Assembly (NCBI GenBank): GCA_051876995.1
Contig: JBJEIL010000084.1
Location: 1-40,192, forward strand
Source of the DNA: Methanobrevibacter sp.
GTDB taxonomy: Archaea > Methanobacteriota > Methanobacteria > Methanobacteriales > Methanobacteriaceae
Direction: 5' to 3'
DNA: 40,192 bases
Below the pieces are notes generated by a model. That model saw only the letters and a list, made by a program, of their open reading frames with translations. It ran no database searches and was not told the DNA's origin. This document shows, piece by piece, positions 5,406 to 25,986 of this stretch (position 1 is its first letter; every line of letters starts with the position of its first letter). The position numbers and the translations under genes were made by a program.

Positions 5406-5680
5406 AGATTATGCTTTTCTATATTTCTTAAATTAAATTGGAACACTTATGTTTAATTCCTTTAAATATGGTAATTATTTTTATTTTGTGGTTTTTTATT
5501 TTGTTTAATATTTTTTTTAAAAAAATTCTATTTTATGAATTTTTATTCTATTTTTCTAATCTTTTTATATTATTTAAAATATATTCCTATATAAATAAAT
5601 TTAAATATGGCTAAACTATAAATTATCTTAATTATCATTCAATTTTCATAAATTTTATTACAATTTTTAAATGTGATGTT

Positions 5681-6406
5681 ATGGTTGACGAGGAAAAATA
5701 TAATCAAGAAGTAAATAAGGTCAAGAATCAGGCTAATGAATTAAATCATTTAACTAATGAAGTTATTCCAGTTCTTAAAAAGGAAAACAAAGAGTTAAAA
5801 AAACTTAAAAATGAATTAACTGAGGCATTGGATAATAGTACTAAGAAATATTATGATCAATTAGATATTAATGCAGAGTTAAGTGAAACATTTACTAAAA
5901 ATGGTGCTGAATTGGCTTTAATTAAGGTTAAATATCAGAATCTTGAAAAGGAAAATAAAAAATTAAATGATAAATTATCTGATTATCTTAAAAAGGAATC
6001 TGAAGAAGAAGATGATAAAGCTAAAGTTGATTTTGAAAGATTAAAAGAAGAAAACAAGAAAATATCCAAAGAATTAAAATCAGCTGAAAATAAATTAAAT
6101 GAGCTTTCTGAAAAGGAATTGCCTTCCCTTAAAGATGAAAATCAATCTCTTAAAAACAAACTATCAGAAATTGGAACATATAAAGATGATTTAAAAAACG
6201 AATACTCTGAGAAAATTGTAAGACTTCAAGCTAAGGTGGATGATTTAACTGAAAGGATAGATAAGAAACAAAGGGAAAATGATAAACTTCATACCGAGTT
6301 AAATAATAAGGATAAAGATATTAAAAACCTTAAGAAACTTAATAAAGATTTATCTGAAAGTTTACAAGATGAAAAGGATAAAGGATTTTTCTCAAGACTT
6401 ATTTAA
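5681..6406 (+). CDS. Uncharacterised coiled-coil protein with C-terminal KGFFSRLI amphipathic motif
   Basis: 241 aa, K/E/L/N-rich heptads, repeated LxxEN(K) units, upstream GTGATG RBS-like sequence. Confidence 0.8.
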   Translation: MVDEEKYNQEVNKVKNQANELNHLTNEVIPVLKKENKELKKLKNELTEALDNSTKKYYDQLDINAELSETFTKNGAELALIKVKYQNLEKENKKLNDKLSDYLKKESEEEDDKAKVDFERLKEENKKISKELKSAENKLNELSEKELPSLKDENQSLKNKLSEIGTYKDDLKNEYSEKIVRLQAKVDDLTERIDKKQRENDKLHTELNNKDKDIKNLKKLNKDLSESLQDEKDKGFFSRLI

Positions 6407-15253: not shown

Positions 15254-16948
15254 TTAAAATTTATCCATTTCATTAAGGGGCATTGATGTTTCCATTGCTT
15301 TTATCTCAATATCTATGCCTTTTTCTCTAATGGCCGCTATGGTATTTAATCCACTACCTGCAACAACACCAAATTTGTAATTGTTTACCTGTGCATTATA
15401 GACCATTTCTCTAGGTTTACCTATTTTTAGAACTGATAAGTCTTTTTTAGATAGTTCCTTTAATATTTCATTACTTTGGTATTGTGCAATGTTCGGAATT
15501 TCCTTAATTGATGCAAGAAGTCTTCTAGAACCTGTCTCATCTTTATTGATAGCAGTTAAATCTTTAAGTATGAATATCTTATGGGGATCTATTGAAGAAC
15601 CGTTATATGATATTAATTCAATAAATGATGATTTATCATTAACCTCCAGTAATCCGCCATATTTAGGTTTACACATAATGCCGTTTTTGATTAATATCCC
15701 GTCAATAGATAAACTGCATACAGTTGCAATTCCTATTCTATCATGGTTTTTGTTATCTTCAACAATTTTATAATATGGTGTAATATATTCAGGACAATCT
15801 TTGTAGGTATTTTTAATGACCTTTAGAGAATCATCTAGATCTTCTTTATTTACATAGGATATGTCTGCAATAATATTTCCATCGCCGGTTTCCATATCAT
15901 AATCTACCTCCTCAATAAGGTTCCATGATTTTGATAGGAAGAACGGTATTTTGTTATATTGTTTATGGGGGTTTACACTTCTTAATATTGAATTAGTTTT
16001 TTTAGTAACAGGTTTTAAATTAGTATAATCCTCTAATTCCTCACCTAATTTAATGTTTACATCGTAATCCAATTCCTTTGCAACACAGAATGGTGTTATT
16101 CCTCCTGCTATAGCTATTCCTATAAAGTCTTCAGGAACTGGTACACCAAGAATATTTTCTCCTTTCTTACCTATTGCAATAATTCCATTAATATTTGCCT
16201 GATTAAGTTTTTCAATAAGTTTTTTTGCTCTATTTCCTACTTTACCGGGAATTATTCTAAAGTTTGCAGGTATTGTTCCATTACCATTATCGATAACATT
16301 TAATACAGATGTCATGTTCTTTGCTATAAACGCATCAAGGGGGGTAATAGATGTTTTTTTATAGGAAATTAATTCCTTAAATCTTCGAGGTTCGTAATTT
16401 TTAACCTCAATGATTCCACCATATTGGGGTTGGGTAGCTATTCCGTTTTTAAGAAATACTCCATCTATTGTTGTTCCACAAATACTTTCAACGGTATATC
16501 CTTCCACACCATCAATCTTTTCTTTGTTAATCTGGATTCTAGGACTAACTGCAATTCCAGTTTCAAATGCTTTTTTAATAATATCAAGTGCTTCTTTATC
16601 TAAAACATTTGATTTATTAACAATAACATTTCCAGTTTTTGTATATGGATTAAAAGTAGTTTGATAAATATAATTCTCGAATTTTGAATAGGTAAAATCT
16701 ATTTCATCATAGACAAGTCCTTTCTCAATACGTGACCTGCCTAGGTCTGTAATTTCTCTACCAGAATAACCAATCTTCTTCGTATAACCCTTCTCATCAA
16801 GAATTTTCATGTGGTAACGTACGGCACGTTCACCTAAATTAAATCCTCTGTTATTCAATTCATTAGCGATGACTTTTGAACCTGTTGGTTTTTCTTGTTG
16901 GTCTAGGATTCTTAGGATTTCTATCATCCTATTTTCTGATTCAGACAT
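15254..16948 (-). CDS. nrpR: Global nitrogen repressor NrpR (wHTH plus two DUF128/NRD domains)
   Basis: EILRIL...GSK.IA.EL..RG..LGERAVRYH N-terminus, two repeats containing (S/T)(I/V)C..(T/S)IDG...KNG...YGG, and matching operators elsewhere in the window. Confidence 0.95.
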   Translation of the reverse strand: MSESENRMIEILRILDQQEKPTGSKVIANELNNRGFNLGERAVRYHMKILDEKGYTKKIGYSGREITDLGRSRIEKGLVYDEIDFTYSKFENYIYQTTFNPYTKTGNVIVNKSNVLDKEALDIIKKAFETGIAVSPRIQINKEKIDGVEGYTVESICGTTIDGVFLKNGIATQPQYGGIIEVKNYEPRRFKELISYKKTSITPLDAFIAKNMTSVLNVIDNGNGTIPANFRIIPGKVGNRAKKLIEKLNQANINGIIAIGKKGENILGVPVPEDFIGIAIAGGITPFCVAKELDYDVNIKLGEELEDYTNLKPVTKKTNSILRSVNPHKQYNKIPFFLSKSWNLIEEVDYDMETGDGNIIADISYVNKEDLDDSLKVIKNTYKDCPEYITPYYKIVEDNKNHDRIGIATVCSLSIDGILIKNGIMCKPKYGGLLEVNDKSSFIELISYNGSSIDPHKIFILKDLTAINKDETGSRRLLASIKEIPNIAQYQSNEILKELSKKDLSVLKIGKPREMVYNAQVNNYKFGVVAGSGLNTIAAIREKGIDIEIKAMETSMPLNEMDKF

Positions 16949-17097: not shown

Positions 17098-18438
17098 TTA
17101 TACGTCTAAGTATCTATTATGTTCATATCCAAAGACTTGTACTCTGTAATCATCCCATTCAGCGTATTTGCTTTCAAGGAATTTTTGAGATATGTGATCA
17201 CCTAAAGAATTCATAATAATAGGATCCTCTTCAAGTGAATGGTAAGCTTCCCATAAACTTGCAGGTAATACTTTAATACCTCTTTCTTCACGTTCTTCTG
17301 GAGTTAGTTTGTAAATGTTAACTTCAGTAGGGTCACCTGGGTCAATTTTATTGTTAATACCATCCATACCTGCTGCTAACATTGCAGAGAATGCTAAGTA
17401 TGGGTTACATGCTGGATCAGGTGCTCTGTATTCGATACGTGTAGCTTTTCCACGTGCTGCAGGAACTCTAACAAGTGCAGATCTGTTTTTAAGACCATAT
17501 GCTCTGTATACAGGTGCTTCATAACCTGGTACTAAACGTTTGTAAGAGTTTACAATTGGGTTAGTTACAGCAGTAAGTGCTGGTGCGTGTTCTAATAAAC
17601 CACCAATGAAGTAAAGTGCATCTTGTGATAAACCTGTTTCAGTGCTATCATCAGAGAATAAGTTTTCGCCGTTTTTGAATAAACTTTGGTGACAGTGCAT
17701 TCCACTACCGTTTTCGCCGAAGAATGGTTTAGGCATAAATGTTACCCTGTAATCCATTTCATCAAATGCTGCCATATTAGCAACAATAGCTTTAATTGCG
17801 GTTTTGAAAGTAACTACTGCATCTGCAGTTTTAAGTGCATCATCAAATTTGAATGCAATTTCGTTTTGACCTGGACCTACTTCGTGGTGACTTGCTTCTA
17901 CTTCAAATCCTAATTTTTGTAAGTTAAAGGTAATTTCTCTTCTGAAATCAGGACCTTTGTCTGTAGGTTCCATATCGAAGTAAGTTGCATTATCATAAGG
18001 TAATGGATTACCGTTTTCGTCCATTTTAACAATAAAGAATTCTGGTTCTGGTCCAATATTATATTTTAATCCTTTTTTACCAATTTCACCTAATTGTTTT
18101 TTAAGTTGGCTTCTTGGATCTCCAGCAAATGGTTTTCCATCGGTGTTGTAAATATCACAAATAAATCTGCATACTGCTGAATCATCTGGTCTCCATGGTA
18201 ATCTGGAATAGGTACTTATATCGGGTTTTAAGATAAGATCACTTTCATTGATTTCAACGAATCCGTCAATAGATGATCCGTCAAATAATGTACCATTTGT
18301 AAATAAGTCTTCCATATCTGTACTTGGAGGTAATGAAACGTTTTGTGGTTTACCATTGATATCTACAAATTGTAATCTAACGAAAACAATTTCATCTTTC
18401 TCCATTTGTTCCATTATTGCGTCTACTTCTTTTGTCAT
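17098..18438 (-). CDS. glnA: Glutamine synthetase, type I
   Basis: [56 protein letters not shown] and RIEYRAPD. Confidence 0.98.
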
Positions 18439-18579: not shown

Positions 18580-18593
18580 GGAAAGTAACTTCC
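18580..18593. promoter_or_regulatory. NrpR operator of glnA (GGAA-N6-TTCC)
   Basis: GGAA-AGTAAC-TTCC is an exact match to the euryarchaeal NrpR operator and lies just downstream of the glnA TATA box. Confidence 0.9.
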
Positions 18594-23115: not shown

Positions 23116-23274
23116 TACTGTTTTTTAATCTTTTATTATTTTTTTTATTTTTTATTTATTCTATCGAATTTAATCTCTCTAAAATTAGTACTTTAATTTG
23201 AAAAGGTATTAAAGTTGGATTGATATTCTGGAGAACTTTACTATTTTATTTTAACAATTATTTCTTTGATTATT

Positions 23275-23931
23275 ATGGGGTATTTTAAACATATTGATAA
23301 TGGTGATGGACCTACTAAGCTATTTCTTGGGGGAGTTCATGGTAATGAAGGTAAAACTGCTATTAAGATGATTAATCGTCTTAAACGTGAAGATTTTGCC
23401 AGTGGTCAGATTTATATCTATAACTTTGATTCCTCACCCTATATTTCAACAGTAGATAAAAAATATTATGAATCTGAAATGGGTCAAAAGGTTATAGGCT
23501 TGATTAACCAGTATAAACCAGATTTTTATACGGAGCTTCACTGTTATAATATAGAGCATTTTAAAAATCTTACAAGTATGTCAAGATTTGAATCTCAAGG
23601 TGTTCCGCCATTAATTGATTGTGGAGAATATGTTCTAGTTAGTTCTGTTTCCCCATTAATTAGAATTAAATATTTTACTAAAGAAACTATATGCAAAACA
23701 TTAGAGATTCCTTGCCTACATGATAAGAAAAAATTGGACAATGCAATTGAAAACTATGGATTCAATCCAGATAAATCTATTGGCAGATATATGGATTTAT
23801 TGTATCTTATTACACAATCTGTATCACGTAAGGATTTTACAGAAAGAATATCAAAATATTATCCTACTCAGGTTGATCTTGCAAGGGAATATGTTAAAAA
23901 GATTTTTGGAGAATTCTTCCCTCCATTTTAA
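23275..23931 (+). CDS. Methanogen-type conserved protein (DUF2119-like; M14 metallopeptidase-like fold)
   Basis: GGVHGNEG (HxxE) and ELHCY putative Zn ligands. Family name is from recall. Start at ATG 23275. Confidence 0.7.
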   Translation: MGYFKHIDNGDGPTKLFLGGVHGNEGKTAIKMINRLKREDFASGQIYIYNFDSSPYISTVDKKYYESEMGQKVIGLINQYKPDFYTELHCYNIEHFKNLTSMSRFESQGVPPLIDCGEYVLVSSVSPLIRIKYFTKETICKTLEIPCLHDKKKLDNAIENYGFNPDKSIGRYMDLLYLITQSVSRKDFTERISKYYPTQVDLAREYVKKIFGEFFPPF

Positions 23932-24192
23932 ATATTTTATAAACTTTTTTTTATTTTATAATTGATTAAAATTTTTAAAAATTTCTAAAAAAAGATATTT
24001 GTTTCTGATTTTATATTTTAAGTATTTTCAATTCTGAAAACTCATTTTTTGATTAAAATATCAATCATTTTAAGGGATTTTTTAAAGATTCCTGTGTCTA
24101 ATTCTTTTATAGATTTAAAAGTTTATCATGTTTAAATCAATACTGTTTTAATAAACTGTAATCTATATATATTATAAATACAAAAATTATAC

Positions 24193-24208
24193 CGGAAGTT
24201 ATATTCCG
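24193..24208. promoter_or_regulatory. NrpR operator upstream of the PII pair
   Basis: C-GGAA-GTTATA-TTCC-G, about 22 nt downstream of TATATATA (24164-24171) and about 60 nt upstream of the start codon. Confidence 0.9.
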
Positions 24209-24269
24209 ACTATTCATTAAAATAGAAATTATATTTATTTGTTATTAAAAAGCAGATTAAGTGATGTAA

Positions 24270-24587
24270 ATGCAGATGATAAGAGCAATTATTAGACCTG
24301 AGAAGGTTGATGATGTAATTATTGCATTGGATGATGAACAATTCCATTCAGTTACAGTAATGGATGCAGAAGGTCGTGGAATTCAGAAAGGATTAAATAA
24401 AGGTGATGAACACTTTGATCAGTTGCCTAAAAAACTTTTAATATTGGTGGTTGAAGATGAGGATGTGGACTTTGTAGTTGATTTAATCTCTGAGGAAGCT
24501 TTTACCGGTAATCCTGGTGATGGTAAAATATTTGTTAGTCCTGTTTTAGAGGCTTATACAATTAGAACAAGAAGTCAAGGATTATAA
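24270..24587 (+). CDS. nifI1: PII family nitrogen regulatory protein, NifI1-type
   Basis: M.MIRAIIRPEK, short T-loop GRG.QKG......FD.LPK, TG..GDGKIFVSPV.EAYTIRTRS.GL C-terminus and a 105-aa length, all characteristic of NifI1. Confidence 0.8.
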   Translation: MQMIRAIIRPEKVDDVIIALDDEQFHSVTVMDAEGRGIQKGLNKGDEHFDQLPKKLLILVVEDEDVDFVVDLISEEAFTGNPGDGKIFVSPVLEAYTIRTRSQGL

Positions 24588-24601
24588 AAGAGGTTTTTAT
24601 A

Positions 24602-24931
24602 ATGAAAGAAATCATGGCTTTTATTAGAGATAAAAAATATGAAAGAACTAAAGAGGTCTTAACTCTTTTAGGTTTTCCGGGAATGACTGTCGTTCCGGTT
24701 TTAGGAAGAGGTAGAAAAATTCAAAACAATAAATTAAAAACCGATGATTTTGCGGTTATTCCTAAAAAATTGATTTCAGTTGTTGTTCCTGATGAGGATG
24801 TAAATCTAATAGTTGAGGTAATTATGAAAATCAATTCTACCGGACGTTATGGTGACGGTAAAATATTCATATGTCCTATAACACAATCTATCAGATTAAG
24901 AACAGATGAAACAGGAGATGCTGTTTTATAA
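24602..24931 (+). CDS. nifI2: PII family nitrogen regulatory protein, NifI2-type (short T-loop)
   Basis: MKEIMA.IR, TK.VL..LGFP.MT...VLGRG, IPK...VVPDEDV.LIVE.IMK.N.TG.YGDGKIFICPI and R.RT.E.G..V. Lies directly after nifI1 with a GAGGT RBS. Confidence 0.8.
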   Translation: MKEIMAFIRDKKYERTKEVLTLLGFPGMTVVPVLGRGRKIQNNKLKTDDFAVIPKKLISVVVPDEDVNLIVEVIMKINSTGRYGDGKIFICPITQSIRLRTDETGDAVL

Positions 24932-25002
24932 TCTTTTTTCATTTATTTTTAGATTTATAAAAAAATTAGTTTTTAAGCTTTATAAGAAAAATAATTTTAA
25001 AT

Positions 25003-25986
25003 TTAGAAAAAATCTTCTAAACTTTTTTGTGAACTGTTAAGGTTCTTGATTTTACTTGCGCTATTTAAAACTCTGTCCTTTGAAAAACCATGTTCCTCAC
25101 ATAAGAACTCTACAATACCTTCACGGTCCGGTTCTTTAAACTTAATGGTATAATCCTCATTTACTCTAGGGTTTAGGAAAATATTTCTTAAAATATCTAT
25201 GTCTATCTTAGGCTCTGTATCTAAGTCTTCTAGAACATTTTCCAGATTATTACCATTTAATAGTTTCATACCTCTTTTAACACCAATACCATGAACTCCA
25301 TCATTAAAATCGGTACCTACAAGAAGTGCAAGATCAATTAGTTGTTCCCTTGAAAAATCAAGATTTGATAGAACCTTGTTTAATTCCATATATTCAAGAT
25401 TTGAAAGTCCTCCACTTAAGGTAAGATTTCTTATAATTCTTGGGGAACCAAATAATAAACAATCATAATCCTGTGATGCGACGGCCCATGCATCTTTTTT
25501 CTGAACCATATAGGATGCCTGTGCTTCACCTTCACCAAGTGCCTGAACATAAGGTATTCCCATTAAATCAAGTAAATATTTGGAACTTTCAACTACATAT
25601 GGTGTAATGTGTGTTGTACGCATTGCATATTTACGTGCTAATTCCTCATTACCTTCTTTAATGGCTTTCTCCCATTCCTCTTTTGATTTTATTTTAGCTT
25701 CTTTACGTTTAGCTATTGTGTCGGATTTATATTCTGAAGGTTTTCCATCAAAAACATAAATAGGTTTTATTCCACGTTCAACAATAGATGATGTTCTATA
25801 TAAAAGACCACTTAAATGGGAAGTTACATTACCATTAGCATCTTTAAGAGGCGTTCCATCTCTTTGACGAATTCCTGATAAAAATTGATAAATTGTATTA
25901 AAAGCATCAATAGCTATTGTTCTTCCTTCTAAATCTTTTAAATTAATTTTTTCTGGAGAAGCAATATCTTTAAACTTCACTCCCAT
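25003..25986 (-). CDS. fen: Flap endonuclease 1
   Basis: MGV, IDA.N..YQFL..IRQ.DG.PL, VFDG, EGEAQ, SQDYD, GTDFN and C-terminal PIP box QKSLEDFF. Confidence 0.98.
   Translation of the reverse strand: MGVKFKDIASPEKINLKDLEGRTIAIDAFNTIYQFLSGIRQRDGTPLKDANGNVTSHLSGLLYRTSSIVERGIKPIYVFDGKPSEYKSDTIAKRKEAKIKSKEEWEKAIKEGNEELARKYAMRTTHITPYVVESSKYLLDLMGIPYVQALGEGEAQASYMVQKKDAWAVASQDYDCLLFGSPRIIRNLTLSGGLSNLEYMELNKVLSNLDFSREQLIDLALLVGTDFNDGVHGIGVKRGMKLLNGNNLENVLEDLDTEPKIDIDILRNIFLNPRVNEDYTIKFKEPDREGIVEFLCEEHGFSKDRVLNSASKIKNLNSSQKSLEDFF

Follow-up and report, generated by a model that had tools for sequence, protein, structure and literature searches.

We analysed a window of 40,192 bases, which is one whole contig of a 1.76-Mb assembly (G000; 28.6% GC, 177 contigs, 85% complete). 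The gene content is that of a methanogen, and the named sources of the nearest homologues suggest Methanobacteriaceae. On its forward strand lie two genes in tandem, ORF1 (24270..24587, 105 aa) and ORF2 (24602..24931, 109 aa). Both score above the Pfam cut-off for PF00543 (P-II), and Pfam, trees and alignment identify their products as a NifI1-derived and a NifI2-derived PII protein, in that order. The insertion site is flanked on the left by a DUF2119 gene (23266..23931, forward strand) and on the right by fen, a flap endonuclease gene convergent to the pair (25003..25986, reverse strand). No nifH, nifD, nifK or amtB adjoins the pair in the gene content of the window. A preliminary description, made from the letters alone, had proposed a stand-alone pair with NifI1 and NifI2 signatures at this junction, away from nif genes and amtB, and the Pfam matches, trees and gene map confirm it. 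The structure model of ORF2 has a PII fold, whose features are the T-, B- and C-loops (mean pLDDT 78.5), with low confidence in the loop at 41-47. GC and GC3 of the pair are close to those of the neighbouring genes.

The window also contains glnA (glutamine synthetase, GS; 17098..18438, reverse strand), whose product is a candidate target of the pair, and, following it, nrpR (15254..16948, reverse strand), which encodes an HTH and two NRD domains and is the predicted repressor of the pair. The arrangement thiF-glnA-nrpR lies 5-9 kb from the pair; the same three genes adjoin the nif operon in G062 and G321 (L178, L184).

The pair carries an NrpR-type operator

Upstream of ORF1, a TATA-box-like run (24164..24178, forward strand), the predicted archaeal promoter, is followed by a perfect CGGAA-N6-TTCCG (24193..24208, forward strand), as the preliminary description had read. 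The first G of this NrpR-type operator is 76 bases from the start codon. The stretch from the TATA run through the operator is identical in G005, a genome of the same genus (99% complete) with the pair at the same site, whereas the spacer upstream of the TATA run has many changes. The operator is likewise unchanged in L191 and L192.

The whole assembly contains three copies of the perfect 16-mer, where 0.25 would be expected; with spacers of 2-5 or 7-12 bases (ten other lengths) the same half-sites occur only 0-1 times each. Its other two copies both lie upstream of amtB-glnK. The short form to which the preliminary description had pointed, GGAA-N6-TTCC, is not enriched in G000 (25 seen, 37 expected), so that evidential weight attaches only to the extended form and to its position. 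A position-weight scan, whose matrix was built from 32 sites of relatives, found 20 matches in G000; those that are intergenic and have an intact core lie at amtB (two), at glnA, whose near-perfect operator is at 18580-18593, and at the NifI pair, whose operator scored 13.0 and ranked 8 of 20. An exact-pattern search of G005 returned the same three promoters (amtB-glnK, glnA and the pair) and three places not tied to nitrogen genes. By sequence, the pair has the marks of the NrpR regulon, with GGAA-N6-TTCC just past a TATA box in a genome that encodes NrpR.

In relatives, nifH has an operator in 29 of 37 loci, mostly 35-105 bases upstream. The distance of 76 bases falls within this range. We infer that the promoter and the pair are a remnant of an ancestral nif operon.

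Operator-like sites were also seen upstream of glutamate synthase in G004 (with a matching site in G002) and of glutamate dehydrogenase in G002 (L241, L240, L244). None was found upstream of the glutamate synthase or glutamate dehydrogenase of G000 (C41, C151).

No nitrogenase genes were found in the genome

Profile searches found no nifH, nifD or nifK in G000. Its only strong NifH-family protein is CfbC (CfbC score 430 against a cut-off of 402; nifH score 374 against a cut-off of 394), and its sole PF00148 protein is CfbD. The same genes were not found in G005, less 1548 withheld bases, where CfbC and CfbD alone were detected, and none of the eight genomes of the genus has nifD. The search for true nifHDK, with CfbC and CfbD set aside, yields no relocated nif cluster in either genome, in keeping with what had been supposed from the locus.

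We then surveyed 314 genomes of the family with a NifI1 profile (E 1e-30) and nifD (E 1e-60). The NifI1 profile matched 98 genomes, although it includes ORF1, whose own score is hence partly built in; nifD matched 99. Among the 98 NifI1-positive genomes, 95 have nifD and in one (G062) the cluster is truncated where its contig stops, so that G000 and G005 are the only NifI1 carriers without a nif cluster. G062 was rejected as a further orphan, its nifH-nifI1-nifI2-nifD being present up to the contig end, and so was G058 as a NifI1 carrier, with a GlnK-like score and length that make it drop out under the NifI1 profile. NifI1 is missing from every genome of the three nif-negative genera with the most genomes (103, 26 and 24), and within the present genus the pair is missing from six of the eight members.

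That the pair still regulates a nitrogenase hidden in unassembled sequence is hardly credible: the incompleteness and fragmentation of G000 and its NifB-like gene would allow it, but nitrogenase is equally missing from the 99% complete G005, nifD from all eight genomes of the genus, the loop of NifI2 is deleted (see below), and a NifB-like gene is found in G001 and G004 too, where both the pair and nifD are missing.

Three pair-less genomes of the genus, G001, G002 and G007 (L040-L046), contain a frame of ~1024-1080 aa with two PF00148 domains beside a second NifH-like gene; this is a fused nitrogenase-like system and not NifD.

The pair descends from the NifI of methanobacterial nif operons

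The best PDB matches of both proteins are the NifI chains of Methanosarcina acetivorans (9p1x_H for ORF1, 9p1x_G for ORF2). In a PII tree of 179 rows ORF1 is placed among the NifI1 proteins (clade support 99) and ORF2 among the NifI2 proteins (98). Each group forms one side of a branch with an SH-aLRT of 99. Both proteins therefore group with NifI1 and NifI2 and not with GlnK, the opposite outcome having been named in the preliminary description as fatal to its reading; in the AU test, placement with GlnK was rejected for ORF2 (p 0.04) and not rejected for ORF1 (p 0.073).

A quick tree of all PII proteins put ORF2 beside NifI2 of Chlorobi and Bacillota with weak support (82), and in a further quick tree the placement was likewise less firm, but a position within methanobacterial NifI could not be rejected (p-AU 0.62) and was recovered by a more careful tree. 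That tree was built from 42 concatenated pairs, hand-picked from a larger set, and excluded the NifI2 loop. Here the orphan pair lies inside methanobacterial NifI (98/95, 97/92), as sister to a Methanobrevibacter-like group (91/81). Its stem is long: it has 0.84 changes per column, while the median end branch has 0.18. Horizontal transfer from the NifI-like pairs that are linked to urea genes in bacteria was rejected by the trees, and phage records gave GlnK-level matches only, with less than 40% identity among the matches listed (10 of 12).

The DUF2119-fen junction has no PII gene in all six other genomes of the genus. Across 30 loci at DUF2119, the pair is present in two, fen lies beside or near it without the pair in 15, and another neighbour is found in 13. 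We suggest that this junction is an insertion-tolerant site, into which the pair, together with its nifH-type promoter, would have been moved after being cut from an ancestral nif operon. Within the genus the pair may have been a late gain, or it may have been lost from the six other members.

In three other genera (L203, L205, L208) the same junction holds a small hydrophobic ORF, a small Cys-rich ORF and gene fragments. In G005, nifI2 and fen are further apart by ~315 AT-rich bases that include a direct repeat (L011:1830-2217) and are absent from the window.

Both genes are under purifying selection

Between G000 and G005, ORF1 and ORF2 together differ by 15 silent changes and one replacement in 214 codons (P 1e-9 against neutrality), giving dN/dS of 0 and 0.02, within the range of the neighbouring genes (0-0.08). 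As these genomes are ~95% alike in DNA, they amount to little more than one lineage. Protein databases contain a second one, with P0092 83% identical to ORF1 and P0002, P0084 and P0085 80-83% identical to ORF2, in which both lengths, the short NifI2 loop and Lys39 are kept. P0092 and P0085 are probably products of neighbouring genes; searches for the DNA of this lineage returned either no locus or two loci near-identical to G005. When the two orphan lineages are compared, 3 of 20 positions are different in the T-loop region of NifI1 and 7 of 21 in that of NifI2. Judged by selection, the pair is functional.

It is very improbable that the pair is a relic in decay, left over from a lost nif operon and without a function today. 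The long stem branch, the deletion in the loop, the loss of conserved residues and the absence from most of the genus would fit such a relic, but these features are countered by dN/dS values as low as those of housekeeping neighbours, by open frames of the same length in a lineage diverged by 17-20% and by an unchanged operator, which largely refute it. The decay that the preliminary description had allowed for is thus not seen.

Identical or near-identical proteins are recorded for more than 100 contigs. Contigs from RNA libraries of one bovine-gut sample (X1, X2) span 24174-24951 and 24219-24951, DNA carry-over being possible; they bridge both genes, do not cover DUF2119 or fen, and cannot rank genes. 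Runs X3-X5 gave small shares only and were left out for habitat.

The nitrogenase-binding loop is shortened and the NifI1 surface altered

The T-loop of ORF2, counted between GRG and xPK, has 15 residues, against 27-28 in all 35 methanobacterial NifI2 (31 from nif loci and four database proteins) and at least 26 in the 26 that could be parsed of 31 other NifI2. The shortened loop noted in the preliminary description of this 109-aa protein is therefore real. Published structures, as far as the available parts of these reports go, give this loop the main role in binding nitrogenase: in M. infernus it makes most of the contact with NifDK and the NifI1 loops little (10.64898/2025.12.07.692841), and in M. 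acetivorans it grips the alpha-loop of NifD (10.1101/2025.09.09.675011). Most of the nitrogenase-gripping loop having been lost, the pair is likely to control another step of nitrogen uptake.

Residue 39 is Lys in ORF2 and Gln in 35 of 35 methanobacterial NifI2. Gln39 is a Mg ligand according to the accessible portion of PMC8395244, but it is present in only 11 of the 26 parsed nif-linked NifI2 from outside the methanobacteria, so that Lys39 is suggestive of a dead site and not proof of one. Judged by the ligands given in that same portion of PMC8395244, ORF2 otherwise keeps R9, T29, the K58-equivalent, the B-loop and both C-loop arginines, and ORF1, like other NifI1, keeps R9, T29, Q39, G41, the K58-equivalent, the B-loop and a NifI1-type C-loop.

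ORF1 is changed at G24, A27, K30, V33, K38, Y49 and E51, each of which is found in 31 of 31 methanobacterial NifI1, and six of these seven positions are also changed in P0092. At position 30 the ORF1 lineages have Val or Leu and ORF2 has Val (Ala in 35 of 35 methanobacterial NifI2); the local GlnK matches in both cases. The net charge of ORF1 is -10, against -5 to 0 for the proteins compared. Retargeting would be expected to leave such a pattern, in which a phase of rapid change, most of it at the former binding surface, gives way to conservation.

A possible role in ammonium assimilation

We lean, with moderate confidence, towards a NifI-derived pair that is kept under selection in a lineage in which nitrogenase genes were not found and that is likely to be an NrpR-controlled sensor of ATP and 2-oxoglutarate tuning ammonium assimilation, with glutamine synthetase as the likeliest candidate target. 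Under nitrogen starvation, when 2-oxoglutarate is high, NrpR would free the promoter along with those of glnA and amtB-glnK. ORF1 and ORF2 would then form the usual trimer of two NifI1 and one NifI2, as we assume from two published structures; the available text of 10.1101/2025.09.09.675011 describes the M. acetivorans NifI as such a 2:1 trimer and terms it the only known heteromeric PII. Mg-ATP/ADP and 2-oxoglutarate may still be sensed at the two sites based on NifI1 loops. The NifI2 site has probably become less responsive, and for this reason output would have moved to the T-loops of NifI1, which may act on a co-induced protein.

The preliminary description had held that the module was kept after the loss or separation of nif and was retargeted, for example to the nearby GlnA, an Amt or NrpR itself. 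The first part agrees with the missing nifHDK, the NifI clades and purifying selection; retargeting is an interpretation to which the altered loops lend themselves, and the three proteins are candidates only. The nearness of glnA is weak evidence, since relatives lacking the pair also have glnA-nrpR at this position.

GlnA is a possible target, though a doubtful one. It is our first choice because it is the sole co-regulated product without its own PII protein and because there is a precedent in M. mazei, where GlnK1 binds GS through its T-loops in an inter-subunit crevice (PMC10651883, in the part available). However, the GlnK1 contacts described there are basic, whereas ORF1 is very acidic and so is the N-terminal helix of GlnA. 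Further, GlnA of G000 keeps its five ligands of 2-oxoglutarate (the site as given in the available part of PMC10799026), as do 27 of 27 GlnA from outside the genus, and with its own site intact GlnA does not need a PII protein. Only three positions are specific to G000 and G005 among ten aligned GlnA, with no clear co-change. A complex prediction for two GlnA copies with ORF1 (score 0.00, mark 0.32, no control complexes) speaks neither for nor against GlnA.

In the six pair-less members of the genus (L224-L229; G001-G004, G006, G007) the 2-oxoglutarate site of GlnA is altered, by R167G in three and S183L in three, and the glnA match of G003 contains one stop. A correlation of this site with the pair, complete ligands being found only in G000 and G005 among the eight, was considered and rejected: the full motif in all 27 GlnA of other genera makes it ancestral.

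A target outside the NrpR regulon is about as likely as GlnA. It could be an enzyme that supplies carbon skeletons, such as pyruvate carboxylase, glutamate dehydrogenase or glutamate synthase, but also N-acetylglutamate kinase, NrpR or the nitrogenase-like CfbC/CfbD of F430 synthesis. PII targets are often unlinked to the PII gene and under separate regulation, which favours such a protein, and G000 encodes CfbC and CfbD as well as glutamate dehydrogenase, glutamate synthase and a biotin carboxylase. As the operator-like sites at glutamate synthase and glutamate dehydrogenase occur in pair-less relatives and not in G000, control could have shifted there from transcription to protein. On the other hand, direct evidence is at hand for none of these candidates, and CfbD is far from NifD (no tblastn match from NifD at E 1e-5), while the loop that grips nitrogenase is gone.

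AmtB or GlnK is a somewhat less likely target. The pair would here tune ammonium import by binding AmtB, or else by joining GlnK in mixed trimers unable to plug AmtB, and so shift the 2-oxoglutarate level at which uptake responds. Both orphan loops, however, are shorter than that of GlnK and lack its Tyr-Arg-Gly tip. AmtB moreover is served by a GlnK of its own whose loop is intact, and both proteins are ordinary next to those of relatives without the pair. Import is nevertheless favoured by amtB-glnK being the other operator-bearing locus, by the match of ORF1 and ORF2 to the local GlnK at position 30, and by an affinity for 2-oxoglutarate that is much lower in NifI than in GlnK (10.64898/2025.12.07.692841, in its available part).

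Comparison with other PII systems

Like the NifI1/NifI2 systems that switch off nitrogenase in M. acetivorans (9P1X) and M. infernus, the pair has the gene order, a first subunit of 105 aa, PDB matches and clades of NifI, an NrpR-type operator upstream and most of the ligand residues. It differs in lying outside a nif operon, in a genome where no nifHDK was found, in the NifI2 T-loop (15 against 27-28 residues) and the change of Gln39 to Lys, and in the altered G24, A27, K30, V33, K38 and Y49 of NifI1. As the pair lacks two defining features of the switch-off system, location in the nif operon and a long NifI2 loop, we call it NifI-derived. With GlnK of amtB-glnK and M. mazei GlnK1 (PDB 8TGE) it shares the PII fold, an NrpR-type operator and a possible part in ammonium uptake or assimilation, but it consists of two unlike subunits with shorter loops, falls in separate clades and is not beside amtB, the genome having its own amtB-glnK elsewhere.

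Among the 80 loci listed, all of them from distant relatives, at least 13 NifI-like pairs have no nifH or nifD in the DNA of the locus, 12 of them bacterial and one archaeal. The bacterial ones come from Bacillota and Treponema (L097, L104, L108, L113, L115, L117, L124, L127, L131, L140, L153 and L105), at around 5600-6350 of most loci, and mostly have an ABC importer as neighbour together with either urea carboxylase and allophanate hydrolase or urease; profiles name urea carboxylase and allophanate hydrolase in L097 and urease in L105. They too combine a NifI1-like with a NifI2-like protein and have no adjoining nif genes, and their NifI2 loop has 17-22 residues in 9 of the 12 parsed. In contrast to the present pair, they form a separate clade (100/100) and sit in a catabolic operon that hints at the target, and the absence of nif is known for the locus only; the present pair is archaeal, stands alone and can be traced to the nif operon of its own family.

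The consulted part of PMC8395244 states that nifI1 and nifI2 are always inside the nitrogenase operon, and that of PMC13474568 gives them in nif operons only. In the full-text literature searched, outside which most subscription papers lie, no nif-free NifI pair was reported for a methanogen and no paper was found on the bacterial pairs linked to urea or ABC genes. We tentatively propose that the NifI heterotrimer could be a re-usable switch and not an accessory of nitrogenase, which sheds the NifI2 loop, places its output on the NifI1 loops and regulates GS or ammonium import, and which may have escaped from nif operons several times, each time shortening the same loop. With the enzyme lost, the binding loop deleted and both subunits and the operator conserved, the lineage offers a natural experiment on the way in which a signalling protein acquires a new target. 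The pair points to a level of nitrogen control that has not been described before, in a methanogen with sequences in cattle-gut libraries.

The one archaeal pair among these 13, with no adjoining nif genes, lies on a short contig (L099:2-1320), where it is directly followed by a gene for a 235-aa protein with a nitrite/sulfite-reductase domain.
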